Assembly (NCBI GenBank): GCA_030699445.1
Contig: JAUYMO010000023.1
Span: 1-59,861 of the forward strand
Direction of reading: 5' to 3'
DNA length: 59,861 nt
From: Candidatus Giovannonibacteria bacterium
GTDB taxonomy: Bacteria > Patescibacteriota > Minisyncoccia > UBA11713 > 2-01-FULL-45-33
In this document: in pieces, positions 3,903 through 47,133 of the stretch
Layout of the letters: every line of letters starts with the position of its first letter
Position numbering within the stretch: the first letter of the stretch is position 1
The notes under the pieces: generated by a model
What the model saw: only the letters and a program-made list of their open reading frames with translations
Database searches by the model: none
Told to the model about the DNA's origin: nothing
Program-made: the position numbers and the translations under genes

Positions 3903-3905
3903 CTA

Positions 3906-4712: not shown

Positions 4713-4781
4713 AGAACCAGAGCAAGACTGGGTTTAAATTATTGTTGTTTTTCAAAACCGAAAGGTGGAAAGGAGAGAAAG

Positions 4782-18328: not shown

Positions 18329-19073
18329 ATTTATCGAGCGAATTCCACATAAGTTCAAAGGCCGCTCGTTGCATTTGATTAATCTCTTTGCTTTCAATAA
18401 TTACGCCCATAAAATTTTCGCGATAAGATATAATTGCGATTTTATTCGCATAGATTTCCATATCTGCATTAAATTGAAATGGCGAATCTTTCACAATACG
18501 AATTTCTCGCAAATCTTGAACGGCTGTATTTTTCCAAGATCGAGCGGCTGGAGAATTGGAGGCAATGATGCGAATGCGAATTTTTCTTCTAACTCTTTCT
18601 TGTATGTAATAATCGGCATATTCTTGAGGCACCAGTTTTGAAAAATCAGAAAGTCCCGTATAACTAAAAATGATGTCGCCTTCTTTACAACTTTCAAGCG
18701 TATCCTCATAAAGATTTTTCATGCCCCCTACGCCCTCATAAAATGTAATGCGAGGCTTTAATGGAATAATATTTTGAATCGCGAGAAGCTCCGGCATCAA
18801 CTTATCAATAACATTTTCTTTTTCCTTTATACCGTTCTTCAGTGAGCGTGGGTCTTCCACAAAATAAACTTTTCGCTTTTTCTTGACGGTAGAAGTAACG
18901 ATGCCGCGGTTAATAAAATCCGGAAGGATATTATATACCGTCGTCCGTTTAATGCCGGCCTTTTTGGCAAGTTGCACAACAGACGCCTCGCCGAGCTCTA
19001 AAAGAGCTAAGTAAATCCGGGCCTCTTTCGGCTTTAGTCCAACATATTCAAGAGATTTTTCTATATTTGCCAT
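18327..19073 (-). CDS. TrmB-family transcriptional regulator
   Basis: N-terminal winged-helix motif LKPKEARIYLALLELGEASVVQLAKKAGIKRTTVYNIL. Confidence 0.7.
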   Translation of the reverse strand: MANIEKSLEYVGLKPKEARIYLALLELGEASVVQLAKKAGIKRTTVYNILPDFINRGIVTSTVKKKRKVYFVEDPRSLKNGIKEKENVIDKLMPELLAIQNIIPLKPRITFYEGVGGMKNLYEDTLESCKEGDIIFSYTGLSDFSKLVPQEYADYYIQERVRRKIRIRIIASNSPAARSWKNTAVQDLREIRIVKDSPFQFNADMEIYANKIAIISYRENFMGVIIESKEINQMQRAAFELMWNSLDK

Positions 19074-19599: not shown

Positions 19600-19974
19600 T
19601 CACAAATTCACATTTTCCAGCATCCTAATCCTAGCTTTTTTACGCGTAAAATCAAGGAAAATTGCTACCACATCAATTTCAAAATCTTTGTCGTCCGCGA
19701 TTTTTCGTTCCGCGAGATAAGTTCTTATCGCTCGGGATAACCGCTGTTTTTTCCACGCCCGCACCGCATCCTCCGGCCGAAAGTTCGGATTGGAAATCGC
19801 TTTCACCTCCACAAAATGTAAAATCCCCTCTTTTTCTGCAATAATATCCAACTCGCCCCATTTTTTGCGGTAATTTCTTTCAACAATCTTAAATCCCCTC
19901 TTTTCCAAAAATCTGCACGCCAAGCCCTCCCCGATATTCCCGACTTTTTGCTTTTGCGTAATTTTCTTTGCCAT
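19600..19974 (-). CDS. yraN: YraN family endonuclease (UPF0102)
   Basis: GEGLACRFLEKRGFKIVERNYR..GELDIIA...HFVEVK is typical of UPF0102. Confidence 0.8.
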   Translation of the reverse strand: MAKKITQKQKVGNIGEGLACRFLEKRGFKIVERNYRKKWGELDIIAEKEGILHFVEVKAISNPNFRPEDAVRAWKKQRLSRAIRTYLAERKIADDKDFEIDVVAIFLDFTRKKARIRMLENVNL

Positions 19975-24591: not shown

Positions 24592-25263
24592 ATGAGATTT
24601 GCTAAAGGCGAGTTTTATCACATTTACAATCGCGGGGTTGAAGGAAGAAATATTTTTATGGAAAGAGCGGATTATTTGCGATTCCTTCGCGGCTTAAAAG
24701 AATTTAACATTAATGGCAATACGAGGTTAGATCGCACAGCCGCTGCTGACGAGATGCGACCTCGTTCTCGTCAGAAACACACAGCATTAACATCAATTCT
24801 TGCCTATGTTTTGATGAAAAATCATATACATTTGTTGTTATATTGTATAAACGAAGAAAAGATGTCGCTTTTTCTGCAAAAAATTTTTGTTGGGCACACA
24901 ATGTACTTTAATACAAAATATCAAAGAACAGGCGTTCTCTTTCAGGGTAGATCAAAGTCTAAACATATTGACGACGATCACTATTTAAAACATCTAATTG
25001 ATTATATCCATTTAAATCCCTTAGATTATTCAATGCCCCAATGGCGAGAACACGGCATTAAAAATAGTTTGAGCACCAAAAACGAAATATTAAATTATCC
25101 ATGGTCAAGCGCAAAAAGCATAATAAATAACAAACCTAATCCGATTTTAAATGGAGAATTGGTCCGAGAGCTATTTCCTCATCCAAAAGAACTTTTAACG
25201 TCAGCGCTAGAATGGTCTTCAGAAAAATTTGAAGACGCAGCCGGCCTTTTAATTGAGCCTTAA
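24592..25263 (+). CDS. IS200/RAYT-like HUH Y1 transposase family protein (paralog 2)
   Basis: YHIYNRG, an HUH motif (KNHIHL) and HLIDYIHLNP. Same 223-aa length as paralog 1 but strongly diverged. Confidence 0.75.
   Translation: MRFAKGEFYHIYNRGVEGRNIFMERADYLRFLRGLKEFNINGNTRLDRTAAADEMRPRSRQKHTALTSILAYVLMKNHIHLLLYCINEEKMSLFLQKIFVGHTMYFNTKYQRTGVLFQGRSKSKHIDDDHYLKHLIDYIHLNPLDYSMPQWREHGIKNSLSTKNEILNYPWSSAKSIINNKPNPILNGELVRELFPHPKELLTSALEWSSEKFEDAAGLLIEP
24748..24765 (+). repeat. same hairpin, copy B' (inside the ORF, near codon 53)
   Basis: Translated as DEMRPRS. It also forms GACGAGA...TCTCGTC. Confidence 0.7.
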
Positions 25264-26136
25264 CTAACGTGACGAGGTCGCACCTCGTCGGCGGGCATGA
25301 AAAGCTTTATGGACTTCTTTTAATTGTTTGTCGGTAAAATGTGTGTAGATTTGCGTGGTGGAAATGTTGGAGTGGCCGAGCATAATCTGGACCGAACGGA
25401 GGTCGGCTCCGTTTTGCAATAAATCTGTGGCAAAAGCGTGGCGCAGGACATGCGGGGTGACTTTTTTGGCGATGCCCGCCTTAATCGCGTATTTTTTTAT
25501 CATTCGCTGGATTGAGCGCGGTGTCATCGGAAATAATTTATCGTTATCCACACTGCCGCGCTTTTCTAAATATTTTTTGATGGCCTCTTTGGCGCGGTCG
25601 GACAAAAAGACAACCCTAATCTTCCCGCCCTTTCCGCGGACGGAAAATTCGTCGCGTTTTAAATTAACATTATCAATTTTTAAATTGCAAAGCTCCGAAA
25701 TACGGAGTCCGGTTGAAAAAAAGAGTTCCAAAATCGCTTTGTCTCTTAAAATTTTCGCGGACTCGCCCTTGGGAGAGTCCAGCAATCTTTCCAAGTCGGC
25801 AATATCCAAAAGGTCTAATTCTCGCTGGGGAAGCTTGGCGAGCTCAATTTTTTCGGCATCCAGCGAATCAATATCTCTTTTCGCAAGATATTTCAAAAAC
25901 ATCCGGAGCGCGATGACATAATAATTCTGCGTATTTTTGTCCAAGTTCGCGCGGTTAAGATAAAGCCGGTATTTTCTTACTAACTCTTCGGTAATCTGGC
26001 CAGCAGAATCAATTTTTGAAAATTCAAAAAACCTTTTTAAATACCTGTCATAATTTTCTACAGTCTTCACGGCTCTCCCTTTTTCAATCTCTAGATATTC
26101 AAGAAACTCCTTCTTTAATTTTGCGACACTTTCCAT
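25264..26136 (-). CDS. tyrosine recombinase XerC/XerD family
   Basis: [31 protein letters not shown] and [14 protein letters not shown]. Confidence 0.88.
25271..25289 (-). repeat. same hairpin, copy C' (inverted, perfect 8-bp stem)
   Basis: GACGAGGT-CGC-ACCTCGTC, 8 nt after the RAYT-like stop. It encodes the last residues (RRGATSS) of the convergent xer gene. Confidence 0.7.
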
Positions 26137-28038: not shown

Positions 28039-30207
28039 ATGCAATCAAAAAAATTTACGACGGAAGTCGGCGGAAGAACTCTTACCGCCGAATTTACTGA
28101 TTTAGCCCACCAAGCCAACGGGTCTTGTTTGCTCACTTACGGAGACACGGTTGTTTTAGCGACCGCCGTGCAAAATAAATCCATGCGCGAAGGAATAGAT
28201 TTTTTCCCGCTCACGGTTGACTACGAAGAGAAATTTTACGCCGCGGGGATGATTTTGGGCTCGCGTTTTATGCGCCGGGAGGGAAGAGCGTCGGACGAGG
28301 CAATTTTGGTTTCGCGCCTGATTGACCGCTCAATCCGCCCGTTATTTAACCAAAAAACCAGAAACGAAACGCAGGTAATTGTGCTCACCCTTTCTATTGA
28401 TGAAGATAACGACCCTGATTTGCTCGCGATTTTGGCGACATCTTTGGCGCTCGGCACTTCTAATATTCCTTGGGCTGGACCGATTGGCGCGGTGAGAATT
28501 GGCAAGGTGGATGGGAAGCTTGTTATAAACCCTGCTTATAAAGACCGCGAGGGCACGCCTTTGGACACGGTAATTTGTGGGATGAACGGCAAGGTCAATA
28601 TGATTGAAGCGGCCGCTCTTGAAATTTCTGAAAATGAAATGGCAGACGCACTCGCGCTCGCCGCCGCTGAAAACGACAAGCTTTGCGAATTTCAAAATAA
28701 AATCATAAAAGAAGTCGGCGTTCCGAAAGCGGAAATTAAAATCGCCGAAGCGCCGCCGGACATGCAAGCGGAATTCCGGAAAAAAATCGCGCCGAAACTT
28801 GAAGAAACAATTTACATCAAAGAAAAACTCAACCGCTACGAAGCGATGAACGCGCTAAAAGACCAGTGGCTGGAAGAATGCGAAGAAAATTTCGCCGACA
28901 CTCCGCATAATATCGCCGATTCTCTTTTTGAAGACGAAATTAACGACATTGTGCACAAAAATATTATAGAAAAAGAAAAGCGGCCTGACGGCAGAGGAAT
29001 AAAAGATTTGCGAGCGCTTTTCGCTAAAGCCGGAATTCTTCCGCGGACGCACGGCTCGGGAGTTTTTTACCGCGGAGAAACGCATATTCTTTCGGTGGCA
29101 ACGCTTGGCGCGCCATCGGACGTGCAGCTGATTGAAGGAATGGAAGTGCGCGCCAAAAAAAGATTCATGCACCACTATAATTTCCCTCCGTTTTCGGTGG
29201 GCGAAATAAAACCCATGCGCGGCCCCGGACGGAGAGATATCGGCCACGGAGCTTTGGGAGAAAAGGCCTTGCTCGCTGTGATTCCTCCCGTTGAAATTTT
29301 TCCATACACAATCCGCGTGGTTTCGGAAACGCTTTCGTCAAACGGCTCATCTTCAATGGGCTCGGTAACGGCCGGCTCGTTAGCGCTGATGGACGCGGGC
29401 GTGCCAATTAAAGCGCCTGTTTCCGGAATCGCCATGGGATTAATGTTAAAAGACGAAAACAATTACAAAGTTTTGACTGATATCCAAGGGCCGGAAGACC
29501 ATCACGGAGACATGGATTTTAAAGTCGCCGGCACAAAAGACGGAATCACCGCGGTGCAAATGGACGTGAAATTGGACGGGATACCGCTAAAAATATTGGG
29601 AGAGGCGTTTTTACAGGCAAAAGAAGCTCGCATTCAAATTTTGGAAGTCGTAACAAAAGAACTTCCCAAACACCGCGACGAACTTTCTCCTTACGCGCCG
29701 AGAATTTTAACCTTGCATATAAATCCGGATAAAATCCGCGACGTCATCGGTCCGGGAGGCAAGATGATTCAGTCAATCGTCGCCGAAACCGGCGCGGAAA
29801 TTGATATTGAGCAGGATGGAACCATTTTTATTACTTCGCCTAGCCAGGAAAGTTTGAAAGCGGCGGAAAATAAAATTATGTCGCTAACAAAAGAATTTGA
29901 AATCGGCGAAACATTCACCGGAACGGTCACAAGAATTTTTCCTTTCGGAGCAATGGTTGAAATCGCGCCGAAGCAGGAAGGGCTCGTGCACATTTCGGAG
30001 TTGGCGCCCTTCCGCGTAAACCAGGTCACGGATGTAGTTTCCCCCGGAGACGAAGTGCCGGTGAAAGTCATCGGAATTGACGACCAGGGGAGAGTCAACC
30101 TTTCAATAAAAGCGATAAAAGAATTGCCATTAAAATCGCATGACCAGCGCCGCGCCGGAGAAGACGAAGCCAGAAAACAAGCTCAAAGGAGACCGCCTAG
30201 GAGATAG
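28039..30207 (+). CDS. pnp: polyribonucleotide nucleotidyltransferase (PNPase)
   Basis: Two RNase PH domains (RPDGR, GHGALGEKAL, SNGSSSMGSV, EDHHGDMDFKVAGT), a KH domain (GPGGKMIQ) and an S1 domain. Confidence 0.95.
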   Translation: MQSKKFTTEVGGRTLTAEFTDLAHQANGSCLLTYGDTVVLATAVQNKSMREGIDFFPLTVDYEEKFYAAGMILGSRFMRREGRASDEAILVSRLIDRSIRPLFNQKTRNETQVIVLTLSIDEDNDPDLLAILATSLALGTSNIPWAGPIGAVRIGKVDGKLVINPAYKDREGTPLDTVICGMNGKVNMIEAAALEISENEMADALALAAAENDKLCEFQNKIIKEVGVPKAEIKIAEAPPDMQAEFRKKIAPKLEETIYIKEKLNRYEAMNALKDQWLEECEENFADTPHNIADSLFEDEINDIVHKNIIEKEKRPDGRGIKDLRALFAKAGILPRTHGSGVFYRGETHILSVATLGAPSDVQLIEGMEVRAKKRFMHHYNFPPFSVGEIKPMRGPGRRDIGHGALGEKALLAVIPPVEIFPYTIRVVSETLSSNGSSSMGSVTAGSLALMDAGVPIKAPVSGIAMGLMLKDENNYKVLTDIQGPEDHHGDMDFKVAGTKDGITAVQMDVKLDGIPLKILGEAFLQAKEARIQILEVVTKELPKHRDELSPYAPRILTLHINPDKIRDVIGPGGKMIQSIVAETGAEIDIEQDGTIFITSPSQESLKAAENKIMSLTKEFEIGETFTGTVTRIFPFGAMVEIAPKQEGLVHISELAPFRVNQVTDVVSPGDEVPVKVIGIDDQGRVNLSIKAIKELPLKSHDQRRAGEDEARKQAQRRPPRR

Positions 30208-30224
30208 CCATGTTAAAATAAATT

Positions 30225-31082
30225 ATGGCCGACGAGCCAAAAAAAATTCCAAATATAAGGACGCTAAAAACCGACGCCGAGATTTTTATGAAAGAGAAAC
30301 AAATCTCGCAGCTGGATATCGCGCGCGGGGCATACAGAGCCGGCAGAGATGTCCCGCGAACCGTCCCGGCGCAAAGTTTTAACTATAAAATAATAATTTT
30401 CGCGGGGCTTGCCGTGCTTATCGTGGGACTGGCGATTTTTTTCGCTTTCAGATTATTTTTTCCGGCCACTCCCGCCCCGCAAAGCGGGGCTGAAAAACCG
30501 ACCGCTAATTTTTTGCCGGTGGACGGAACCAAAGAAATAATATTTTCCGAAGCCAATCCGGGCGCGCTCTTAAGTGCGCTTTTGGAGGAGCGCGTAAAAA
30601 ATCTCCGCTTTGACACAGCGGTTTATTTGCCGATAAAAATCCTTAAAAACACCGGAGAAGAAAAATTTTTGGCGGCTCCGGATTTGGCGCGTTCGCTCGC
30701 CTGGCAGGCGCCGGCGGAATTTTTGGGCAATCTTCAGCCAGATTTCAATCTGCTCGCCGTTTACGGGCAAAATTCACGGGATATCGCGGTAATTTTAAAA
30801 ATAAAAAATTTCCCGAGCGCTTTAGCGTCGCTCTTTAATTGGGAAAAAACAATATGGCAAGATTTTAAACCATTTTTACAGACAGAGGATATAAAAAATA
30901 TTTCCCAATTCGCTTTCGCGGATGATTTAATAAAAAATAACGACGCGAGGGTCTTAAAAAATTCCCAAGGTAAAATAATTCTGGGATATTCAATTTTCAA
31001 CCACCAATATGTAATCATCTCCACCTCCCGCGAGGCGCTCTCAACAATCCTAGACCGCCTCATCGCTTTACCGCCAAGATAG
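30225..31082 (+). CDS. hypothetical membrane-anchored protein (285 aa)
   Basis: One TM helix (IIIFAGLAVLIVGLAIFFAF). No family recognised. Confidence 0.5.
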   Translation: MADEPKKIPNIRTLKTDAEIFMKEKQISQLDIARGAYRAGRDVPRTVPAQSFNYKIIIFAGLAVLIVGLAIFFAFRLFFPATPAPQSGAEKPTANFLPVDGTKEIIFSEANPGALLSALLEERVKNLRFDTAVYLPIKILKNTGEEKFLAAPDLARSLAWQAPAEFLGNLQPDFNLLAVYGQNSRDIAVILKIKNFPSALASLFNWEKTIWQDFKPFLQTEDIKNISQFAFADDLIKNNDARVLKNSQGKIILGYSIFNHQYVIISTSREALSTILDRLIALPPR

Positions 31083-31090
31083 TAGAGGTA

Positions 31091-31119
31091 TTGACACGCA
31101 ACCAAAAGGGTGCTATACT
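31091..31119 (+). promoter_or_regulatory. sigma-70-type promoter (TTGACA-17-TATACT)
   Basis: It shares ggtgctatact with the 3903 and 4681 promoters. Confidence 0.6.
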
Positions 31120-31172
31120 CTAAATTAGAACTAGAAAAATAGGCTCAGCAAATAAACTAAAGGAGGAGAGCT

Positions 31173-31571
31173 ATGGGACTAGACTTGACTCTGCTTCCCC
31201 TTGAGGGACCGAGAGAAATGGGCAACACATACGTACTCTGCCACGATCGCTTGAGCTTTGATCGCGCTTACGCCATCTTCGGGCAATTGACCGATTTATC
31301 CTATATTCGAGAGGGTGGACGGAGCGATATTCCGGAGAAGCCAACAATCAAGGCGCATCCGATTCCGCCGCAGATGTGGGTAAGGACCTACGAGGACGAG
31401 GGCATCGAGAAAACAAGAGAGGACAAGTATGGCGACGAGCTGGTGTTTGTCTACGCCCAGCAACTCAAGAAGCTGAAGATGCCAGACGATGCCTCGCCTA
31501 AGAACAAAGCCATCAAGGCTTTCGTGAACGCTCTCCCCGACGACACGCCCATAATCCTTTATTGGTCTTGA
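31173..31571 (+). CDS. hypothetical protein (132 aa), orphan
   Basis: aaaggaggag SD and a terminator hairpin at about 31592-31635. It looks more GC-rich than its neighbours by eye. Confidence 0.5.
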   Translation: MGLDLTLLPLEGPREMGNTYVLCHDRLSFDRAYAIFGQLTDLSYIREGGRSDIPEKPTIKAHPIPPQMWVRTYEDEGIEKTREDKYGDELVFVYAQQLKKLKMPDDASPKNKAIKAFVNALPDDTPIILYWS

Positions 31572-31682
31572 GATGCGCTGTTAGTTCAATTGTGAGCCGG
31601 AATGATCAAGTGATCGTTTCGGCTCATTTCTTTTTGTAACAATTTGCCTCCGAGATAAAATTTTGATAAAGTATAAAGAAAT

Positions 31683-31895
31683 ATGATTATTTTTACTGAC
31701 CACGCGCTTAGGCGGATGCGTGAAAGGAAAATTTCTAAAGCGCAAGTTAGCATGGTATTAGAGCATCCGGAATCTGCGGAATCAGAAGAAGGTAATATTA
31801 AAATACTTCGTAAAAAATTTGAAAACAGGGCTTTGGAGATAGTTATTGAAACTGGCAAAAACAAAATTATCGTGGTAACATTATATTGGTTATGA
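31683..31895 (+). CDS. DUF4258-like toxin candidate
   Basis: IIFTDHALRRMRERKIS...VVTLY pattern. It overlaps the next ORF. Confidence 0.55.
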   Translation: MIIFTDHALRRMRERKISKAQVSMVLEHPESAESEEGNIKILRKKFENRALEIVIETGKNKIIVVTLYWL

Positions 31896-32101
31896 AAATA
31901 CAATACGACAAACAAGCCGATGCCTTATACATCTATATCGGCGAAGGTAAAATAAAAAAGACCGTCAAAGCCGGTAAAAATACTCTGATTGATTTTGGAG
32001 AAAAAGACCGGGTTCTTGGAGTTGAATTTTATAAAATCTCCCGCTCCGCGCCGCAAGAAAAATTGCAAAGCATATCCGTGGAATTACCGGTTCACGCTTA
32101 A
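31892..32101 (+). CDS. DUF2283-like antitoxin candidate
   Basis: MKIQYDKQADALYIYI...LGVEF pattern. ATGA-type overlap with the preceding ORF. Confidence 0.55.
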   Translation: MKIQYDKQADALYIYIGEGKIKKTVKAGKNTLIDFGEKDRVLGVEFYKISRSAPQEKLQSISVELPVHA

Positions 32102-32103
32102 TT

Positions 32104-32463
32104 ATGGCACTGGATTTAGATTATTTTAGAAAACAATTGGAGGAAGAAAAAACGCGGTTGGAGGGGGAGTTATCAACAATCGCGCATAGGAATCCGGACG
32201 CGCCGGAGGATTGGACCGTGAGCCAGCCAGATATGAATGTTATGCCTGCCGCCAAAGAAGAGGTCGCGGACGTTGAAGAAGAATTGGAAAACGCGGCAAG
32301 CGTGGAATATAATTTGGAATCCCGCTTGCGGGATATTAATGAAGTGCTTGAGAAAATGCGCCAGGGAAAATACGGCGTCTGCGCCGTCGGTGGCGAGTTA
32401 ATTGACGAAGCAAGATTGCGCGCCAACCCAGCGGCGATTACTTGCGTAAAACACGCCAAATAA
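32104..32463 (+). CDS. DksA/TraR-family protein with a degenerate zinc finger
   Basis: Coiled-coil N-terminus. The C-terminal YGVCAVGGELIDEARLRANPAAITCVKH keeps only 2 of the 4 Cys positions. Confidence 0.55.
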   Translation: MALDLDYFRKQLEEEKTRLEGELSTIAHRNPDAPEDWTVSQPDMNVMPAAKEEVADVEEELENAASVEYNLESRLRDINEVLEKMRQGKYGVCAVGGELIDEARLRANPAAITCVKHAK

Positions 32464-32464
32464 T

Positions 32465-33049
32465 ATGTTTCAAATAGACCAAAAATTTCCGCATTTTTCT
32501 TTGGAGACATATAATCCGAAAAAGGATGAAGTGGGTAAAATTACCTTGAAAGACTTCGAAGAGGCCTGGTTAGTATTATTTTTTTATCCTGCGGATTTTA
32601 CATTTGTCTGCCCCACGGAACTTTTGGATTTAAACAAGCGGCATGAAGATTTCGCGAAAGAAAAAGCGGAGCTCGTCGGCGTCTCAACCGACACAGTTTT
32701 CACGCACAAGGCCTGGATTGAAACGGAAGAACTTTTGAAGGGCTTAAAATATCCGTTGGCGGCTGACCATAACGGAAAATTTTCAAGAGAACTTGGAATT
32801 TATGACGAAAATAACGGCATGGCCCAGCGCGCGGTTTTTATAATTGACCCGGACGGTATTTTGCGCGCCGTTGAGATTGTGGCGGACGCAATCGGCAGAA
32901 ATGCGTCCGAAATTTTGAGGAAATTAAAAGCTCTAAACTTCGTCCGCAAAAATCCCGGCCACGTCTGCCCTGCCTCTTGGGATGAAGGCGCGCAGACCCT
33001 ACAACCATCAATTAAAAAAGCAGGTAAGGTTTACAAAGAATGGCAGTAA
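32465..33049 (+). CDS. peroxiredoxin (2-Cys Prx/AhpC family)
   Basis: FFYPADFTFVCPTEL, and a resolving Cys in VCPASW. Confidence 0.9.
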   Translation: MFQIDQKFPHFSLETYNPKKDEVGKITLKDFEEAWLVLFFYPADFTFVCPTELLDLNKRHEDFAKEKAELVGVSTDTVFTHKAWIETEELLKGLKYPLAADHNGKFSRELGIYDENNGMAQRAVFIIDPDGILRAVEIVADAIGRNASEILRKLKALNFVRKNPGHVCPASWDEGAQTLQPSIKKAGKVYKEWQ

Positions 33050-34569
33050 AACTCCATTCGGCGGAAGTTGTTGGTTTGGAGGGAAAAATTATTGACGTGG
33101 AAATTGATCTCTCGCGCGGACTTTTTAGTTTCGCGATTGTGGGGCTCGCGGATAAGGCAATCGCCGAATCCAAAGAAAGAGTCTCCGCGGCGATAAAAAG
33201 CCTCGGGGCCAAGCCGCCTAACCAAAAAAACCAGCGAGTCACGATTTCTCTGGCTCCGGCGGATTTAAAAAAGGAAGGGCCGGCTTTTGATTTGCCCATA
33301 GCGCTTTCCTACCTTTTGGCCTCCAAACAAGCAAATTTTGAAACAAAAAATAAAATTTTTCTGGGCGAGCTCGCTTTAGATGGCGCCCTTCGCCCAATAA
33401 AGGGCTCTTTGGCCCTTGCCGAAACCGCCAAAAAGAAAGGATTTTCCGAAATATTTTTGCCCGCGGGAAACGGCGCCGAAGCGTCTTTAATTGAGGGCAT
33501 AAAAGTTTTTGAAGCCGCTTCTCTGGAGGAAATTTTAAACCATCTGGAAAATAAAGTTTTAATAAAAGAATTCCCGCCGACAAAATTTATAAAATCAGAA
33601 TTTTCTTTCACGACGGATTTTTCCGACATCCGCGGGCAGGAATCCGCAAAAAGGGGGTTAGAAATCGCGGCGGCGGGCTCGCATAACGCTCTTATGATAG
33701 GCCCGCCGGGCACGGGAAAAACCATGCTGGCGCGGGCGTTTTCCACAATTTTACCTCCGCTTTCCCGCGACGAAGCGCTGGAGGTCACAAAAATACATTC
33801 CATATCGGGCGCTTTGAAAGAAAATGAAACTTTAATCAGAGAGCGCCCTTTTAGAAATCCGCATCATACGTCTTCTTACATTTCGTTAGTCGGCGGAGGC
33901 AGTTATCCAAAGCCCGGAGAAATAACTTTGGCCCACAGGGGAGTTTTATTTTTAGACGAGTTCGCGGAATTTGAAAGGCGGGTGATTGAAGTTTTGCGCC
34001 AGCCACTGGAAGATAAAGTGGTAACAGTTGCCCGCGCTAAAGCCACCCTGACTTTCCCGGCGCAAATTATGCTGATTTTGGCGATGAACCCATGCCCTTG
34101 CGGAAATTTGGGTTCCAATAAAACCTGCATCTGCCCAACCTCGGCCATCAATCGTTATCAAAGAAAAATTTCCGGGCCGATTGTTGACCGGATTGATTTG
34201 TGGCTGGGTGTTTACGGCATTGAACATAAAAAATTGGAAGACGACCCGCCGGGAACCAGAAGAGAAAAGTCGGATGAAATACGCAAGCGCGTTGAGTATG
34301 CGCGGGAAACCCAGAAAAAAAGATTTGCCGGAAGCAAAATTATGACCAACTCTGAAATGTCCGTTCGAGATATTAAAAAATATTGCGTTTTGGACGACGA
34401 ATCAAAATCAATTTTACAGCAAGCCGCCGCTCGGCTGGATTTATCTCCGCGTTCTTACCACCGCGTCATCAAACTCGCCCGCACCATCGCCGATCTGGAA
34501 AACACAAAAGAAATAAAAAAAGAACATTTGCTGGAAGCTTTACAATACCGCCCGAAACAATTGGTATAA
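33040..34569 (+). CDS. comM: YifB/ComM Mg-chelatase-like AAA+ ATPase
   Basis: Lon-like N-terminal domain, Walker A (GPPGTGKT), LFLDEF, a CPCG..C.C motif and C-terminal SPRSYHRVIKLARTIADLE. Confidence 0.9.
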   Translation: MAVKLHSAEVVGLEGKIIDVEIDLSRGLFSFAIVGLADKAIAESKERVSAAIKSLGAKPPNQKNQRVTISLAPADLKKEGPAFDLPIALSYLLASKQANFETKNKIFLGELALDGALRPIKGSLALAETAKKKGFSEIFLPAGNGAEASLIEGIKVFEAASLEEILNHLENKVLIKEFPPTKFIKSEFSFTTDFSDIRGQESAKRGLEIAAAGSHNALMIGPPGTGKTMLARAFSTILPPLSRDEALEVTKIHSISGALKENETLIRERPFRNPHHTSSYISLVGGGSYPKPGEITLAHRGVLFLDEFAEFERRVIEVLRQPLEDKVVTVARAKATLTFPAQIMLILAMNPCPCGNLGSNKTCICPTSAINRYQRKISGPIVDRIDLWLGVYGIEHKKLEDDPPGTRREKSDEIRKRVEYARETQKKRFAGSKIMTNSEMSVRDIKKYCVLDDESKSILQQAAARLDLSPRSYHRVIKLARTIADLENTKEIKKEHLLEALQYRPKQLV

Positions 34570-34580
34570 AACAAAAGAAA

Positions 34581-34670
34581 TTATCTTGTTTTTTTTGTCG
34601 CAATCACCACCAAAGCTAAGGCAATGATTACCAGCGCGGCAAGTATGTAAGATTGAACCATAATGTCCAT
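34581..34670 (-). CDS. 29-aa hydrophobic peptide (MDIMVQSYILAALVIIALALVVIATKKTR)
   Basis: Same design as the 4470-4559 peptide. Inside comM-flank insert 1. Speculative. Confidence 0.3.
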   Translation of the reverse strand: MDIMVQSYILAALVIIALALVVIATKKTR

Positions 34671-34686
34671 ATTATTAATAATGAAA

Positions 34687-34866
34687 CTAATTTTTAATGA
34701 GGGCTATGCTAAAATACCAAGAAATTAAGGATAGAACCAACCCCATAGAAAGCGAGAATAAATTAGCTGTGCCAGCCACTAAAGGGCCTATGACAATTGA
34801 AGCAAATAAAACTTGCGCAATGTCCCGAGAAATATTCGATATGACATGAATCTTCCCGAATTCCAT
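34687..34866 (-). CDS. 59-aa small membrane protein
   Basis: MEFGKIHVISNISRDIAQVLFASIVIGPLVAGTANLFSLSMGLVLSLISWYFSIALIKN. Below the ORF-track cutoff. Confidence 0.3.
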   Translation of the reverse strand: MEFGKIHVISNISRDIAQVLFASIVIGPLVAGTANLFSLSMGLVLSLISWYFSIALIKN

Positions 34867-34919
34867 GAACTTATGGTAGCATAGGCTTATAAAATGTCCA
34901 CAATATTAGAAAAGATTTT

Positions 34920-34982
34920 GAAAACATAAAAAAAGAGCACCTCCTTGAGGCGCTCCAGTATAGGCCGAAACAGTTGATATAA
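34920..34982 (+). repeat. remnant copy 2 of the comM 3' end
   Basis: It reads KNIKKEHLLEALQYRPKQLI-stop, against EIKKEHLLEALQYRPKQLV-stop in comM. Many differences are synonymous. A stop codon lies just upstream. Confidence 0.8.
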
Positions 34983-35215
34983 ATGTATAGCTATGCTATG
35001 AATTTATCCACACACGATAACGGCTACAAATTGTTATAATAATTAAGTGCCTAATAAATGCGGGCACAGAAGGGGATAAAGGTTTTTGAATCACATTTAG
35101 GTTTTGGAGGCCTATAATGTTTGACGAATCCTAAATCTTGTAACTTCTTGGGCGTGGAATCCCTTAAAGCATCCCCTTCTGAGCTCGAACTTCCGAGACA
35201 TTTTTTATTTATTTT

Positions 35216-35611
35216 CTATTCACTCGGCGTATTATTTTCAAGGTTCTTTTCAGAAAGTTTTATATAAATAATTTTCCCGTGCTGATTATCAGTTAATTTT
35301 TCAGGAGTATATTTCCCCGCAAATTTTACTGGATCAATTCCGTAAGCCCGAATAAATGAGTGTGGAGCAACAGAAGCTGTTTTGCTACCGCTGTGCGTTA
35401 TCTTAAAGGCGCCCTCCTTCCTGTCTTTTCCAAAAGAAAAACCAACGGCCTTTTTTTCCTTATCGTAAAATATAGTAACAAATGAGTATTGAGACAAAGA
35501 CTCCTTCCTATAAAATCCGGCATTAAAAGAAAATCCACCAGCCTTATTAAGGCTAATAGTATAAGAAAATCTAGCTCCTATTTCTGTAAATTTGTTGAAT
35601 TGAAACTCCAT
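35216..35611 (-). CDS. hypothetical protein (131 aa)
   Basis: ORF inside comM-flank insert 2, bracketed by the inverted TTATCCACACAC 12-mers. No family recognised. Confidence 0.5.
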   Translation of the reverse strand: MEFQFNKFTEIGARFSYTISLNKAGGFSFNAGFYRKESLSQYSFVTIFYDKEKKAVGFSFGKDRKEGAFKITHSGSKTASVAPHSFIRAYGIDPVKFAGKYTPEKLTDNQHGKIIYIKLSEKNLENNTPSE

Positions 35612-35714
35612 GTTCTAATTGTATCATGCGCAATAAAAAAAACAATAGCAAGTGTGTGGATAAGTTTTTTTAAAACTAAAAGTCCTTGTTTATAAGGTGT
35701 TTTTAGAGCGAAAC

Positions 35715-35771
35715 ATAAAAAAAGAGCACCTGCTAGAGGCGCTCCAGTATAGGCCGAAGTCGCTAATTTAG
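35715..35771 (+). repeat. remnant copy 3 of the comM 3' end
   Basis: It reads IKKEHLLEALQYRPKSLI-stop. Confidence 0.8.
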
Positions 35772-36136
35772 ATAAACCCTTTAGGCGCGGCTTCTTGCTC
35801 TTCTTGGCACAGCGGGTTTTTTTCGCCAGCCAAATCACAGAATTTTTGCTTGGTCCTAGCCAGCTTTTCATCCGCGGCTTCGTTTTCGTCTATTATTTTA
35901 GAAAGCCGCTGCTTAATCTGGGTATTTTCAGCCAGCGTTGCTTGCCTCGCTTTAATCGCAAGCTCTATTAACTCCTCCTTATGGCTGATACCGAGGTCAA
36001 CTCTTTCCGAAAAAGCTTGTTTATATTCTTTTAACGCATTATTAAGTCGGGCTTGATGAACTAGCTTTGGAATAAAGCCTGTCAGCATACCAGCAACAAA
36101 AATAACGAACGCCCAAATAAGATATCTTTTAACCAT
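35768..36136 (-). CDS. hypothetical TM plus coiled-coil protein (122 aa)
   Basis: N-terminal TM helix, then a helical region. No family recognised. Confidence 0.5.
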   Translation of the reverse strand: MVKRYLIWAFVIFVAGMLTGFIPKLVHQARLNNALKEYKQAFSERVDLGISHKEELIELAIKARQATLAENTQIKQRLSKIIDENEAADEKLARTKQKFCDLAGEKNPLCQEEQEAAPKGFI

Positions 36137-36260
36137 CCGCGTCTCCTTTCGTGTTTTTTTCTTTTACTACTATACACCTTTCAACAAAAAAATAAAGCGC
36201 GCAGGGATGGATGTCTCCTTACGCGCTTAAAATTCGGAGGGGAAAAAGAATTGGAAGGGT

Positions 36261-36845
36261 TCAGCTCACAGTCGCGGCTGACCGTTTAAGCCCTGGCGTT
36301 TCCTTGTGGTCGCTTGCTGCTCTTTCGGCTTTCTCGGGAGCAACGATGGCATTGTTTTCACTACCCATCTTCGGCAGAGTGTAAAACAGATGCTCTACCA
36401 AAAACCCGAGTAGTGCCACGCTGATGCCAAAGACGATAGCCGCCATGACCGCATACTTATCGCTCATCTGGTCCTCGATATGGCTCACGAATACGCCGAA
36501 TAAATCTTTTGACCTGCCATCAATGAAAAGATACTCCGAGGGCGCGACAGCGCACAAATACACGAGTCCAGAGCAGAGTGCGGTCCAAAGAAAACGGCTG
36601 GCAATAGAACTCTTTTCCTGGTAGCGCACGCCGTTGTAGAGCACGGCGCCGAGACCTGCGAGAAATACCACTATTCCCATATTTAAGATGAGATAGCCGA
36701 GTTCGCGCGGGCCATACCAAGGAAGTAGAAGCGCGAACACAAAAGCGTCCTTATCAAGACTCGGTTCCACCGAGTTCCCGATTACGAGAACGAGCCAAGA
36801 GCTCAAAACGAACAAGACCCAGCGGGTCCACTTGTAGCTAAACAT
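36261..36845 (-). CDS. hypothetical polytopic membrane protein (194 aa)
   Basis: About 5 hydrophobic helices. No family recognised. Confidence 0.5.
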   Translation of the reverse strand: MFSYKWTRWVLFVLSSWLVLVIGNSVEPSLDKDAFVFALLLPWYGPRELGYLILNMGIVVFLAGLGAVLYNGVRYQEKSSIASRFLWTALCSGLVYLCAVAPSEYLFIDGRSKDLFGVFVSHIEDQMSDKYAVMAAIVFGISVALLGFLVEHLFYTLPKMGSENNAIVAPEKAERAASDHKETPGLKRSAATVS

Positions 36846-36937
36846 CTTTCACCTCCATAATTGTATTGTCACCAGCGAGTTATTCGCCAGCTTACTCTGC
36901 CTACCATTATACACCCGGGGGCTAAAAAAGTCAATAG

Positions 36938-37948
36938 CTAATAGATTTGCGCGGCGCCGCGGATTTCAAAGTGCACATGGCAGCCGGATGAATTGCCGGT
37001 AGAGCCTATACTCCCGATTTGCTGGCCTTGCTCCACATGGTCTCCAACTTTAACAATCACATAAGAAAGGTGGGCGTAAACGGTCTGCGTGCCATTGGAG
37101 TGAGCAATTACCACATATTTTCCGTATCCTCCGTTCCAGCCCTGGTTTCTGGCGACAATCACCGTGCCGCCTGCCGACGCGTAAACCGGAGTTAAACAAC
37201 TAGCCGCCAAATCCACACCGCTATTATTATATCCATGATACCCATGCGGGTTTGAAGCCGTCGCGCGCGAGTTTCGTCCTCCTACAATCGGGCGCATAAA
37301 ATACCCCGGCAACGACGGACTGCCGGATCCCCGCACGGGCGCGTATTGCGGCACCTCAATCTCAATGTCCGGAATAATGATGGTTATCCCTTCTTCCAAA
37401 GGCCCATTCGCGGGCAGATTGAATTCGGAATTAGCATTAATAATTTCCTGCGCGTCGCTTTTGAATTTTTTAGCAAGTGATTGCGCGGTGTCTTCTTTTT
37501 TCACAGTGTACGGAAAACCGCTTATCGGGAAAATTATCAGCGTATCGCCGGCTTTTACCAGATCGCCGTTTTTTAAGTTATTAGCCCAGTAAATATCTGA
37601 AACGCTTCTATTGAACATTTTGGCAATTTTTGAAAGGTTGTCTTCCGGCTGAACAGTATATGTAGTAATTTGGTCAAGCTTATAGGTTTCAAAATCTGCC
37701 AAACTCCCCATAGGGCCGATTACCGGAAAAAGAGAGGAATCTTCCACGATATTCATAACCGCGCCGCCGGTAGCCGCTTTGGGGTCAGCGGCGCTTGGGG
37801 CTTTCAGAAGCGGAAGGTTTTGAGAGTTATAAGAGGAGGCGTTGCTCTGGCCGCTGCCGAATAAATTACCTAAAAACGAGAAAAAGCCGGCGCGCGCGGC
37901 CGGGGCAAATGCCAAAAATAGCGCCAAAAAGACGCCCGAGGCGGGCAA
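36938..37948 (-). CDS. LysM-domain M23 family metallopeptidase
   Basis: Signal peptide, two LysM-like repeats (YTVQPEDNLSKIAKMF, YTVKKEDTAQSLAKKF) and an M23 core (HSNGTQTVYAHL, GSTGNSSGCHVHFEI). Apparent TTG start. Confidence 0.85.
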   Translation of the reverse strand: MPASGVFLALFLAFAPAARAGFFSFLGNLFGSGQSNASSYNSQNLPLLKAPSAADPKAATGGAVMNIVEDSSLFPVIGPMGSLADFETYKLDQITTYTVQPEDNLSKIAKMFNRSVSDIYWANNLKNGDLVKAGDTLIIFPISGFPYTVKKEDTAQSLAKKFKSDAQEIINANSEFNLPANGPLEEGITIIIPDIEIEVPQYAPVRGSGSPSLPGYFMRPIVGGRNSRATASNPHGYHGYNNSGVDLAASCLTPVYASAGGTVIVARNQGWNGGYGKYVVIAHSNGTQTVYAHLSYVIVKVGDHVEQGQQIGSIGSTGNSSGCHVHFEIRGAAQIY

Positions 37949-38192
37949 AAATAAGCCTTTAAGATGTGCCTTATTTAAAATTGTCTAAAAGTTTAAAAGC
38001 TAATTAATAGGCCTCGCCTAGCAAACCTGTCCGCCTTTGGCGGAAAAACCCTTATTTCAAGCCAAATTTGGGCTTCAATGCTCCCTATCCGACCATTAGG
38101 TTAATACTAGCATTTTGGGCGCCCCCAATCAATCCGGGTCAAAAAGATGTCCACAGCCCCGCTAAGCGGGGTAAAATTGCTATCATACGCTC

Positions 38193-39989
38193 ATGCTAGA
38201 TTTAGCGTTGTTAAATTCCAAACAAAAAGAGGCGGTGGAGGCCACAGAAGGGCCGGTTTTGGTTGTGGCGGGCGCCGGAGCGGGAAAAACCAAGGTCATC
38301 ACCGAGCGGATTAAATATTTAATTGAAAAAGATGTTCCACCCGAATCAATTTTGGCAGTTACTTTCACAAATAAAGCCGCGGGGGAGATGAAAAGCCGCG
38401 TGGCGCGTTCCGGCCCATTCATCGGCACTTTTCACGCTTTGGGGCTTTTAATTATCCGCGAAAACCTGAAAGGGCTAGGCATTGCCAAAAATTTTACTAT
38501 TTTAGACGAAGATGACGCCCTAAAACTCATAAAAGAATGCCTTTTGGAGTTAAAAATTGACCCGAAGCAATTTGACCCGTCCAGAATCAGAAATAATATT
38601 TCCCGCTTGAAAAATCAGATGATGACGGCGGATGAGTTTATTGAGGAAAGCGCATTTGGAAAAATACTGGGGAGAGTCTGGCGGCTTTATGAAGAAAAAA
38701 CCAAAGCGCAGAATTTGCTGGATTTTGACGATTTGCTTTTAAAGCCGGTTTTGCTTTTTAAAAAAGATGCCGAGGCGCTGAAAAAATATCAGGAGCGCTG
38801 GCGCTACATCCATATAGACGAATACCAGGATACAAACGAAGCGCAATATGTTTTGTCAAAAATGCTTGCGGAAAGTAGCCGCAATATTTTGGCGGTGGGC
38901 GACATTGACCAGGCAATCTACAGCTGGCGGGGAGCGGATTTTAAAAATGTTTTGAATTTCCAAAAAGATTATCCGGACGCCAAAGTTGTTTTTCTGGAAG
39001 AAAATTACCGCTCCACCGATATTATTTTGGAAGCGGCAAACGCCGTTATAACGCATAATAAATTCCGCATACCAAAAAATCTATGGACAAAAAGAACCGG
39101 CGAAAACCAAATCCGGATTTTTTTCGCGGAAGACGAAAAAAAGGAAGCGGAAATGGTCGCCAGCGAAATAAAATTCCTGAAAACAAAAATAAAATTGAGC
39201 GAAATGGCGGTTCTTTACCGCACCAACGCCCAATCGCGCGCCATGGAAGAAGTTTTTTTGGCGAAAAATATTCCTTATAAAATTACCGGCGGAGTGCGTT
39301 TTTACGAAAGGCGCGAAATAAAAGATTTAATAGCGTATCTAAGGCTTATTAGAAATCCGGAGAACGGATTGAGCTACAATAGAATCGCGAATGTCCCGCC
39401 GCGCAAAAAAAAGAAAATAGATTTTGACGCGCTTATAGAAAATTTACGTAACGATACTGACAATATAAACGCGCAAGAACTCCTAAAAAAAATTATTAGT
39501 AAAATAGAATATAGAGACTATATTGATGACGGAACGGAGAAGGGAAAAGAAAGATGGCAAAATGTGGAAGAGCTTCTGGGTCTCGCCCAAAAAATAGAAA
39601 ATTTGGATGAATTTTTGGAGCATATTTCTCTTTTTGCCATAGATGATAATTACGATAAAATTGAGGACCGCGTGAGTTTAATGACCATGCATTCAGCCAA
39701 AGGGCTTGAATTTGAAGCTGTTTTTGTGGTTGGCTTGGAAGAGGGGCTTTCCCCGCACACGCTTTCATTTGAACCGGAGGATTTGGAAGAAGAGCGCCGG
39801 CTTTATTACGTGGCCATAACCCGCGCCAAAACTCATCTCTATCTGACCGCGGCCGGGCGCCGGACTCTTTTCGGCGAGCGCGCGGCGAATATGCCTTCCA
39901 GATTTTTAAAAGAAATCCCCGAGCATTTGCTGGTTTATTTAAATAAACGGGAGGGCGAAGAAATAGAAGAAAATATTTATGTTGAATAA
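38193..39989 (+). CDS. uvrD: UvrD/PcrA/Rep-family DNA helicase (short, 598 aa)
   Basis: AGAGAGKTKV, DEYQDTN, VGDIDQAIYSWRGA, LEENYRS, TMHSAKGLEF and YVAITRAK. Confidence 0.9.
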   Translation: MLDLALLNSKQKEAVEATEGPVLVVAGAGAGKTKVITERIKYLIEKDVPPESILAVTFTNKAAGEMKSRVARSGPFIGTFHALGLLIIRENLKGLGIAKNFTILDEDDALKLIKECLLELKIDPKQFDPSRIRNNISRLKNQMMTADEFIEESAFGKILGRVWRLYEEKTKAQNLLDFDDLLLKPVLLFKKDAEALKKYQERWRYIHIDEYQDTNEAQYVLSKMLAESSRNILAVGDIDQAIYSWRGADFKNVLNFQKDYPDAKVVFLEENYRSTDIILEAANAVITHNKFRIPKNLWTKRTGENQIRIFFAEDEKKEAEMVASEIKFLKTKIKLSEMAVLYRTNAQSRAMEEVFLAKNIPYKITGGVRFYERREIKDLIAYLRLIRNPENGLSYNRIANVPPRKKKKIDFDALIENLRNDTDNINAQELLKKIISKIEYRDYIDDGTEKGKERWQNVEELLGLAQKIENLDEFLEHISLFAIDDNYDKIEDRVSLMTMHSAKGLEFEAVFVVGLEEGLSPHTLSFEPEDLEEERRLYYVAITRAKTHLYLTAAGRRTLFGERAANMPSRFLKEIPEHLLVYLNKREGEEIEENIYVE

Positions 39990-40770
39990 GCAAAAAAAGT
40001 TTTTGGGCCAGCATTTTCTAAAAAATAAAAAAATCTTGGAGGAGATGGCGCGCGCGGCGGAAATTTCTAAGAAAGATATTGTTTTGGAAGTCGGCCCGGG
40101 CTTGGGCTCGCTTACGGAAATTTTGGCGGAGCGCGCCGGAAAAGTAATCGCGATAGAAAAAGACAGGGATTTAATTCCTGTTTTGCGCGAGAAATTCAAA
40201 AATTATAAAAATGTTGAAATTATTGAAGGAGATATTTTAAAAATTAAATACCTCCCCTTGCCCCTCCTTGTAAAGGAGGGGATAAAACATTATAAAATTG
40301 TCGCCAATCTTCCATACTATATAACCTCGCGTTTTCTGCGCCTATTCTTGTCCCAAACCAGGTTTAGGTCAAAGCTGATGGTGCTTATGGTTCAAAAAGA
40401 AGTCGCCGAAAGAATTTTGGCGCGCGACGGAAAGGAATCTTTGCTTTCTCTTTCCGTAAAAGCTTACGCTAAAGCGGAAATTATACGGCGCGTTTCAAAA
40501 AATTTTTTCTCGCCTCCGCCAAAAGTTGATTCGGCAATAATTAAGCTAACCCCTTACCCCCAAACCCCCTTTCCCCTTCGTAAGGGGAAAGGGGGCGATG
40601 TTGAAAAAATTCTTGCCGTTGCTAAAATCGCCTTCCAGCAAAAACGCAAAATGCTCCGGCATTCTCTTTCGAGGTTCAACCTTAATAATTTAGAAGAATA
40701 TGGAAATAAGCGCCCGGAAGAACTTAGCTTTAAAGACTGGGTTCATATTCACACCCTAATTGTGCCGTAA
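39979..40770 (+). CDS. rsmA: 16S rRNA (adenine1518/1519-N6)-dimethyltransferase RsmA/KsgA
   Basis: LGQHFL, EVGPGLGSLT, ANLPYYITS and FSPPPKVDSA. Two GC hairpin elements lie inside the ORF (40251-40283 and 40550-40596). Confidence 0.9.
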   Translation: MLNKQKKFLGQHFLKNKKILEEMARAAEISKKDIVLEVGPGLGSLTEILAERAGKVIAIEKDRDLIPVLREKFKNYKNVEIIEGDILKIKYLPLPLLVKEGIKHYKIVANLPYYITSRFLRLFLSQTRFRSKLMVLMVQKEVAERILARDGKESLLSLSVKAYAKAEIIRRVSKNFFSPPPKVDSAIIKLTPYPQTPFPLRKGKGGDVEKILAVAKIAFQQKRKMLRHSLSRFNLNNLEEYGNKRPEELSFKDWVHIHTLIVP

Positions 40771-46710: not shown

Positions 46711-47133
46711 ATGCAGCACCAAGTCCCACAATTTATAGATATAGAAGATAAAATTTTCGGGCCTTTAACGGCCAAGCAGTTTTTCTATATCTTGGGCGGC
46801 GCCGCTATTCTTTTTATAATGTACGTTTATCTTCAGCTTTGGCTGGTAATTATTCTTGGCGCTCCGGTCGCGGCGTTCGCCGGTTCTCTGGCGTTTTTGA
46901 AAATCAACGGCCAGCCATTTATTAAAATTCTTGGGAGCGCCATAGATTACGCTTCTTCGGCAAGATTATATTTGTGGAAGAAGAGCCCGCCGCGCGGGAA
47001 AACACTCGGTGTTTTTGGGGATTCAACACCGAGTGTTGAGGAGCGCGAGCGGGCTACAACCCCCAAACTCACCCAAAGCAAATTACAAGATTTATCCTGG
47101 TCCTTAGACATCCAAAAAAATATTAAACGATAA
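46711..47133 (+). CDS. PrgI-family (VirB3-analogue) membrane protein
   Basis: QVPQFIDIEDKIFGPLTAKQFFYILGG plus two TM helices, directly upstream of VirB4-like genes. It carries the 37-nt element at 47001-47037. Confidence 0.65.
   Translation: MQHQVPQFIDIEDKIFGPLTAKQFFYILGGAAILFIMYVYLQLWLVIILGAPVAAFAGSLAFLKINGQPFIKILGSAIDYASSARLYLWKKSPPRGKTLGVFGDSTPSVEERERATTPKLTQSKLQDLSWSLDIQKNIKR

Follow-up and report, generated by a model that had tools for sequence, protein, structure and literature searches.

How do bacteria whose genomes are very small and contain few mobile elements that can be recognised, such as the Patescibacteria (Candidate Phyla Radiation), come by their accessory genes? To our knowledge the route is poorly understood. 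The question is raised by the comM (yifB) locus in a 59.9 kb, metagenome-derived stretch of DNA from a groundwater Candidatus Giovannonibacteria bacterium (Patescibacteria; called the window below, meaning the whole stretch that was analysed), whose comM finds its best matches in metagenome-assembled genomes of Giovannonibacteria. In the window an intact comM is followed by two further copies of its own 3′ end, and the three ends bracket two small inserts (Table 1). Comparative sequence analysis showed that insertion at this site has been repeated, that the end of comM has been replaced and older ends displaced, and that the inserted cassettes have defined ends.

A repeat search of the window returned a single direct-repeat family with three 63 nt copies; identity to copy 2 is 71% for copy 1 and 86% for copy 3. 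A back-translated EHLLEALQYR pattern matched the window three times, at these three copies, with 0.00 matches expected from 100 shuffles. Both results confirmed the triplicated comM end described in a first-pass annotation of the window. All three ends, which span the last ~20 comM codons, are in frame, terminated by a stop codon and in the same orientation. Pairs were compared across 57 nt, from IKK through the stop codon: copies 1 and 2 differed at 15 nucleotides with one amino-acid change, copies 1 and 3 at 21 with two changes, and copies 2 and 3 at nine with one, the differences being almost entirely synonymous. In simulations of random substitution (20,000 per pair) no outcome kept the frame, the stop and so few amino-acid changes, suggesting that the copies diverged inside working genes. 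Judged in this way, and by their matches to the native ends of relatives given below, each copy is a former working comM end from a different allele, as the annotation had held.

Two trivial origins were considered. Duplication of the comM end in place, with later divergence, would give repeats that are direct and close together, as these are. We regard it as very improbable: dead copies would not have kept frame, stop and amino acids through 9–21 substitutions, the copies resemble different native alleles of other genomes, and the sequences between them are mutually unrelated. Even less credible is an assembly artefact in which strain variants of the comM end were stitched together. The source is a metagenome, and comM alleles vary in the community; however, the copies are 14–29% diverged and separated by unique sequence with complete open reading frames (ORFs). 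In addition, a second assembly (the Logan assembly of SRR13727534, possibly built from the same reads) yields an identical 10 kb contig, with 100% identity over window positions 30059–40000. The architecture is present in five other independent assemblies, and two contigs from different samples, L173 and L174, share the same junction. Exact-protein look-up of ComM and of the 131-, 122- and 194-aa proteins encoded downstream retrieved one Logan contig only and no closer strain.

We then asked which of the three ends is native. The ComM protein of the window is 92–94% identical to those of the Giovannonibacteria loci L003, L009 and L083. Copies 2 and 3 were 90.2% and 89.2% identical, respectively, to the native L003 comM end at the DNA level, the Lys-Ser codons included in the case of copy 3. 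Copy 1, the end now in use, reached 66–72% identity to relatives in the final 51 alignment columns, whereas most of comM stands at 80–90%; it has A+T-rich codons and is 84.6% identical to the native end of L171. Along comM in 60-column blocks, identity fell modestly at the very end, a drop that is not decisive alone. By these comparisons copies 2 and 3 look like the native end type of the clade, and copy 1 looks foreign. Furthermore, the stop codon of copy 3 overlaps the stop of the convergent 122-aa gene, and the native L009 comM end meets its neighbour likewise. Because copies 2 and 3 resemble the L003 end and copy 1 does not, and because copy 3 abuts the 122-aa gene, copy 3 looks like the oldest displaced end, the ancestral one, and the copy nearest comM looks imported. 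We infer that copy 1 came with insert 1, which would be the newest cassette.

Copy 3 is the syntenic counterpart of a ~105 nt copy in L173, and L174 shares this architecture, with a copy of that length. The left ~40 nt of copy 3 have apparently decayed, mostly by GC-to-AT changes, and the right 63 nt, the part with the hairpin described below, are retained. To the left of copy 2, 9 of 21 positions match the native sequence, again with mostly GC-to-AT differences; the match is not significant and hints that copy 2 may be a decayed longer copy.

We examined at least 160 comM loci (80 among the matches listed for each of a genome and a metagenome collection), which a few loci reached through look-ups of cargo genes brought to ~165. 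Most are Patescibacteria loci with a ComM identity of about 50–58%, a few are labelled Chloroflexota, and each relative was seen through its comM contig alone. The junction between comM and a convergent LysM/M23 peptidase gene was scored in 12 distinct Giovannonibacteria. It was empty in three of them (L004, L006 (= L086) and L084 (= L104)), with about 10–20 nt between the comM stop and the M23 stop; it held different inserts of 0.3–4.3 kb in six (L005, L007, L008, L009, L085 and L171) and arrays of comM ends in three (the window, L003 and L184). Small membrane proteins, a DinB/LexA-like pair and HicB are among the products of the relatives' inserts. A displaced comM end is also present in L173 and L174, both short contigs that end before comM. 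The two findings that had been named as fatal to the proposal, a triplication fixed in relatives and an assembly artefact, were thus not borne out. The insert of L007 (11555–15779) is 4.3 kb long, lacks comM-end repeats and, by sequence reading, encodes Y-family polymerase-like, LexA/UmuD-like and protease-like proteins and a response regulator.

When each locus was queried with its own comM tail, extra co-oriented ends were found downstream of 4 of 160 comM tails, in the window, L003, L093 and L120; the L184 array and the displaced end in L173 and L174 were found through cargo look-ups. The closest genome, L003 (93% ComM identity), has four ends around genes for a 177-aa membrane protein, a 502-aa orphan and HicB/HicA. 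Two ends flank a 68-aa gene and a PemK/MazF-type toxin gene in L093, and two flank a 345-aa HATPase/DUF4325 gene in L120, where the displaced copy has two in-frame stops. In L173 and L174 the order is hicA, a 127-aa homologue of the 131-aa gene, a displaced comM end, a homologue of the 122-aa gene and the M23 gene. These arrays (L003, L093, L120, L184 and the pair L173 and L174) come from unrelated assemblies of other studies. The effect is concentrated on comM: among other ORF tails at the same loci, we found ~1 convincing downstream copy in 3,381, against 4 in 160 for comM (Fisher P = 2e-5). Among 3,541 ORF tails in all, the hits beyond comM and the window's YraN gene were spurious-looking or, in L089, due to an internal tandem duplication. 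The latter (L089 7620–7830), in which ~115 nt of the 3′ end of the polynucleotide phosphorylase gene are perfectly duplicated in tandem, may be an assembly or frameshift artefact.

Two cassettes recur at different places in different arrays. Positions 3084–4713 of L003 and 1987–3629 of L184 are 76.5% identical over 1,649 nt, and AACATAAAAAG, ~60 nt ahead of the comM stop, is the exact starting point of the alignment in both. In L184 this point falls within native comM; in L003 it coincides with the second comM-end copy. The shared stretch consists of a comM end, a spacer and a gene of ~500 aa (502 aa in L003, 498 aa in L184), and it ends within the next comM-end copy. The same cassette is thus first in the L184 array and second in the L003 array, as predicted if cassettes enter serially at the working comM end. 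HicB, similarly, lies directly after native comM in L085 and L171 and after the third copy in L003, accompanied by the last 18–35 nt of the comM end. The serial insertion proposed in the first-pass annotation is supported by these two cassettes, together with the three empty sites and the different inserts at the other junctions. The comparison also showed the order within an array, judged from sequence: the newest cassette stands beside comM, and the oldest end is furthest from it.

The boundaries of the repeats were compared next. On the right, similarity between Giovannonibacteria copies ends at the comM stop codon, and in L120 ~35 nt beyond it. On the left, two classes were found. The L184 copy, window copy 2 and L003 copies B and C make up the short class, which begins about 62–72 nt before the stop. 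L003 copy D, L173, L120 and L093 make up the long class, which begins about 100–115 nt before it, near ATCAA/ACTCGCC. The four long-class boundaries fall within ~15 nt of one another in three genome groups, Giovannonibacteria, L093 and L120 (simulated P = 1.6e-4). Just upstream of this boundary lies TACCACCGCGTCATCAAACTCGCCCGCACCATCGCCGA, which is almost invariant among comM alleles. The cassettes added at the junction measure 0.35–1.5 kb.

The displaced ends may have kept a function, one that the first-pass annotation did not mention. On the minus strand, the 71 nt stretches of copies 2 and 3 fold with −16.3 kcal/mol (z = −2.11) and −19.0 kcal/mol (z = −1.84), respectively. Copy 1 has no antisense hairpin (z = +0.55). 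The hairpins in copies 2 and 3 have the form of an intrinsic terminator, with a G+C-rich stem-loop and a U run downstream of a minus-strand gene. An antisense hairpin is also present in the native ends of L003, L009, L083 and L004 and in the L173 copy. A second allele type, KSPHILEAL (AGCCCCCAT...), has a different hairpin at the same position, and in the displaced copy of L184 a Glu-to-Gly codon change completes a perfect 7 bp stem. The comM end of this clade would accordingly double as a predicted terminator for the convergent gene, and this predicted role for minus-strand cargo genes may explain why displaced ends persist.

The reading that we favour, with a probability of about 0.5, invokes a trans-acting enzyme that recombines DNA site-specifically at a short core, through which cis-mobilizable cassettes would accrete. 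In the ancestral state copy 3 would have been the end of comM, facing the convergent 122-aa gene; the 131-aa cassette would have entered with copy 2 in a second step and the two-peptide cassette with copy 1 in a third. The putative recombination core lies inside comM at AACATAAAAA(AA)G, ~60 nt before the stop, and a second class of junction would lie ~100–115 nt before it. The recombinase would act in trans, by analogy with the accretion of cis-mobilizable elements at att sites, and a site-specific crossover would be expected as a fixed junction inside AACATAAAAAAAG. comM stays intact because every cassette brings with it a surrogate comM 3′ end, which may be carried, as the first-pass annotation put it, in attP. 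We favour this reading because the effect centres on comM, the repeat boundaries fall close together, the cassette ends are conserved between genomes, and the copies share at most 11–12 identical bases in a row. Adjacent copies are 65–71% identical with no more than 11–12 consecutive identical bases, and between copies 1 and 2 the longest identical run is at most 11 bases (both counted manually). Recombination by RecA usually needs longer identity than this.

Several observations weigh against site-specific recombination. No integrase was found in or beside any cassette in the ~165 loci, when all ORFs were searched with iterative profiles seeded with the window's Xer protein and a large serine recombinase. 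The sole tyrosine recombinase in these loci is a conserved Xer orthologue, and the serine recombinases number three, each 4–9 kb from comM and none adjacent to it. In IMG/VR, searched with three back-translated comM-end patterns and an alignment of the 131-aa family, neither a cassette nor an isolated comM-end fragment borne by a phage was found. At two unrelated sites, a YraN gene end and a duplicated promoter, the window has further small repeat-flanked inserts, so that one enzyme specific to comM would be insufficient. L171 has three cargo genes at the junction and a single comM end, and the hybrid comM ends of L085 and L171 suggest varying crossover points, which homologous exchange would fit better. 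Outside the near clade of the window the antisense hairpin is not strong, and more distant relatives lack it. Finally, no empty site was found in any strain close enough for the insertions to be dated.

Much of this would be expected if no dedicated recombinase were involved. Cassettes could be captured by homology after uptake of DNA from related strains, through short conserved blocks of the comM end, either by Campbell-type ('ends-in') integration or from circles recombined at the repeats. The comM end would then be a portable stretch of homology, and the locus would resemble a Neisseria minimal mobile element that leaves duplicates behind. Such capture is the main rival and a serious one, although we rate it as less likely than a recombinase acting in trans. 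It would account for the lack of a cis recombinase anywhere in the loci searched, for cargo types of the arrays being found directly after native comM in other relatives, for the different apparent crossover points of the hybrid ends in L085 and L171, and for the similar repeat-flanked inserts at the YraN gene end and the promoter. The near-invariant TACCACCGCGTCATCAAACTCGCCCGCACCATCGCCGA could support RecA pairing, and the window contains type IV secretion-like genes. However, the identity between copies, in percentage and in uninterrupted length, is below what RecA usually needs, the effect falls on comM and not on gene ends generally, the boundaries cluster, and the first duplication would still require a non-homologous event.

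In a third account, the cassettes are the eroded remains of larger integrase-bearing elements (prophages or islands) that entered the comM 3′ end and later lost the integrase and most of the cargo. The direct repeats around an intact target gene are like attL and attR, the inserts are low in G+C, non-selected parts such as the left part of copy 3 are decaying, and about half of the Dehalococcoides ssrA islands lack an integrase module (PMC3146451). Nevertheless, we found ~10 cassettes in six genomes with no recombinase fragment in any, and none of the cargo genes encodes a Pfam recombinase domain or a transposase. The 502-aa cassette keeps the same two ends, without an integrase, in L003 and L184, whose ComM proteins are ~80% alike, so it was moved or inherited as a small unit. 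Moreover, no large occupied site was found at the junction in the ~165 loci; the larger intact elements with att-like repeats that had been anticipated there did not come to light. Erosion is therefore quite unlikely in our view.

The same was true of the expected extrachromosomal form of the comM-end repeat, which was not found in isolation in viral contigs (IMG/VR patterns and the GenBank phage records that were opened). Two of the three IMG/VR patterns matched nothing, and the two hits of the third were one full-length comM and one comM split by a prophage. A tblastn search of GenBank phages with the comM C terminus listed 17 records, and the two long gut 'phage' contigs that were opened contained a full-length comM each. 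In the IMG/VR prophage contig L180 (8899–11033), a gene for a 584-aa large serine recombinase lies directly before the last ~100 comM codons. A search by eye for 28 bp dif-like sites (11 bp arms, 6 bp spacer), made without a reference dif for the phylum, gave only the half-site-like TTATGTTTT on the reverse strand of the repeats, with no matching second arm. No partner element or host enzyme recognising the comM-end site was found in the fetched loci, which consist of the comM contigs only.

A broader proposal can be built on the favoured mechanism, namely that Patescibacteria gain genes in an integron-like manner without a cis integrase. The comM-end segment would serve both as a portable recombination site and as an antisense terminator, a host or helper enzyme would act on it, cassettes would be exchanged between species, and they would stack with the newest nearest to comM. 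The captured cassettes would carry one or two genes, such as toxin–antitoxin pairs, small membrane proteins and orphans, and the process may also operate at other gene ends, for example that of YraN in the window. We consider this generalization unlikely as it stands.

The contents of the inserts agreed with the first-pass description of two small hydrophobic ORFs, a 131-aa orphan and no integrase. Insert 1 has a G+C content of 0.35–0.38, compared with 0.45–0.52 in the flanks. Neither the 59-aa nor the 131-aa ORF gave a match in Pfam, PADLOC or PHROGs; for the 131-aa protein, AlphaFold gave a mean pLDDT of 80.8, but no fold in the Protein Data Bank matched at E ≤ 0.001. A HicA remnant was sought in insert 2 and none was present, and Rfam returned nothing credible over 34000–37000. 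Homologues of the 131-aa protein in L171 and L173 are located between comM and the M23 gene, and both of these Giovannonibacteria homologues overlap a HicA toxin gene at its start. In four unrelated contigs (L169, L170, L175 and L177) more distant homologues lie directly 3′ of restriction–modification methylase genes. The family may be a small regulator or an antitoxin.

The 131-aa gene is flanked by the inverted repeat AATTTATCCACACAC, which includes a perfect DnaA-box sequence, TTATCCACA; the latter occurs four times in the window against 0.31 expected. Each AATTTATCCACACAC arm lies upstream of a −10-like hexamer, and the L171 homologue has TTGTCCACA at the corresponding upstream place. The pair may form an operator or a convergent promoter pair. 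Beyond copy 3, the 122-aa and 194-aa genes are missing in the relatives with an empty site.

Table 1. Positions of the comM locus features and of the Xer-type gene in the window
Feature	Position	Strand	Remark
Xer-type tyrosine recombinase gene	25264–26136		7 kb from comM; synteny conserved in 38 loci
comM (yifB), intact, 509 aa, targeted at its 3′ end	33040–34569	+	Pfam ChlI, Mg_chelatase (8.8e-92), Mg_chelatase_C
Copy 1, working comM end, KEIKKEHLLEALQYRPKQLV-stop	34509–34571	+	Direct-repeat family D1
Insert 1, two ORFs for small hydrophobic peptides	34572–34921	-	Absent from all relatives
Insert 1 ORF, 29 aa	34581–34670	-	ORF list
Insert 1 ORF, 59 aa	34687–34866	-	ORF list
Copy 2, displaced comM end, NIKKEHLLEALQYRPKQLI-stop	34922–34984	+	Direct-repeat family D1
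Intrinsic-terminator-like hairpin in copy 2	34925–34956	-	10 bp stem, then seven U; terminator scan
Insert 2, 131-aa orphan gene and promoter region	34985–35705	-	Gene at 35216–35611
15 nt inverted repeat AATTTATCCACACAC, two arms	35001–35015 (+), 35652–35666		93% complementary (I9); flanks 131-aa gene
Copy 3, displaced comM end, ERNIKKEHLLEALQYRPKSLI-stop	35706–35773	+	63 nt repeat unit at 35711–35773
Intrinsic-terminator-like hairpin in copy 3	35714–35745	-	9 bp stem, then seven U; directly after 122-aa gene
Lineage-specific membrane-protein gene, 122 aa	35768–36136	-	L173 homologue at same position
Lineage-specific membrane-protein gene, 194 aa	36261–36845	-	Between copy 3 and conserved flank
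LysM/M23 peptidase gene, conserved right flank of hotspot	36938–37948	-	Pfam

Further features were noted elsewhere in the window. The last 63 nt (19600–19663) of a YraN/UPF0102 gene (19600–19974, minus strand) recur at 18268–18330, 1.27 kb downstream, with ~90% identity. The two copies bracket a gene for a TrmB-like regulator (18327–19073) and a small ORF on the opposite strand, and the displaced copy is ~25 nt from a tRNA-Pro gene (18171–18242). A 41 nt direct repeat (3903–3943 and 4681–4721, 95% identical), which contains a near-consensus promoter (TTGACT, 17 nt, TATACT), flanks a 737 nt insert with a 145-aa orphan ORF (3976–4413), just after an H+-pyrophosphatase gene. Two 223-aa proteins with IS200-like Y1 transposase domains are encoded at 13093–13764 and 24592–25263; the second match is weak (E = 5e-4), and its gene abuts the Xer-type gene. 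About 1 kb upstream of comM there is a toxin–antitoxin-like DUF4258/DUF2283 pair (31683–32101; Pfam labels from the identical Logan contig). The type IV secretion-like genes encode a PrgI-family protein (46711–47133), a VirB4/TraG-like ATPase (47788–49599) and a pilin-like protein (51010–51909), and are embedded in large orphan ORFs from about 41.8 to 54 kb. With dnaA and dnaN at 56109–58714, a distance of ~20 kb probably separates the comM hotspot from the replication origin.

Collectively, the locus records, in order, the genes gained at a single site, a site used in three separate Patescibacteria groups. If a recombinase does act in trans, the core sequences offer a handle for finding the enzyme and possibly an integration tool for uncultured bacteria; if there is no enzyme, short conserved gene ends would serve as landing pads during DNA uptake. 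The last codons of comM and the predicted antisense terminator would be overlapping constraints in a compact genome.

Among known systems, the first-pass annotation had pointed to the Acinetobacter AbaR islands. The comparison holds in that comM is a landing site; it fails in that AbaR islands are Tn7-like transposons that interrupt comM and bring no replacement 3′ end. In the window comM is intact, the cargo has no transposase, and the repeats are 60–105 nt of diverged alleles. The gene is also a reported site for serine recombinases, according to a preprint on pipolins (10.1101/2024.05.22.595293). Serine-recombinase prophages such as that in L180, pipolins and AbaR share the target gene with the cassettes described here, but they break up comM, by splitting or interrupting it, and encode a recombinase or transposase of their own, whereas here comM is whole and no enzyme is carried. 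Thus the recombinase at the junction and the split comM that mark a large-serine-recombinase prophage are present in L180 and absent from the window.

The likeness to integrons, as generally known, lies in cassettes of one or two genes, often toxin–antitoxin, that are bounded by repeats of ~60–100 nt and are newest at the entry site. Here, by contrast, there is no intI or attI, the sole tyrosine recombinase being of the Xer type; the repeats are not attC but are homologous to the comM coding end throughout; and the cassettes have their own promoters and stand in either orientation. Neisseria minimal mobile elements are regarded as being exchanged by a double crossover in the flanks and have not been described as leaving gene-end repeats. 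The comM junction is like them in its two conserved flanks, variable small cassettes and lack of mobility genes, and differs in that the end of one flank is serially repeated. In Streptococcus thermophilus, ICESt1, ICESt3 and the related cis-mobilizable elements (CIMEs) occupy the 3′ end of fda, and the resident integrative and conjugative element supplies the integrase. The comM arrays resemble them in using a protein-coding 3′ end and in their tandem att-flanked units without an integrase, but no partner was present in the fetched comM contigs.

With integrative elements that use the 3′ ends of genes in general, the locus shares flanking repeats of the target, an intact target, empty sites and the presence of the same element with the same ends in different genomes; it differs in having no internal integrase gene. 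Like cis-mobilizable elements, the cassette units lack integration and transfer genes. The closest analogue is provided by the tandem ssrA islands of Dehalococcoides, which are likewise stacked 3′ of a single-copy gene that stays intact and are bounded by repeats, in their case 20 bp of the ssrA 3′ end (PMC3146451). Of 31 such islands, 16 have a CcrB-like serine integrase, and the 15 without an integration module have been discussed as cis-mobilizable and accreted (PMC3146451). There an RNA gene is targeted by islands of several kilobases, whereas here the target is protein-coding, the repeat is a 60–105 nt segment of diverged alleles, and the cassettes are 0.35–1.5 kb long with no integrase found. 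What is new in the present system is the host phylum, the use of a protein-coding 3′ end as a 60–105 nt surrogate, cassettes of one or two genes without an integrase, and the predicted antisense terminator role of the displaced ends.

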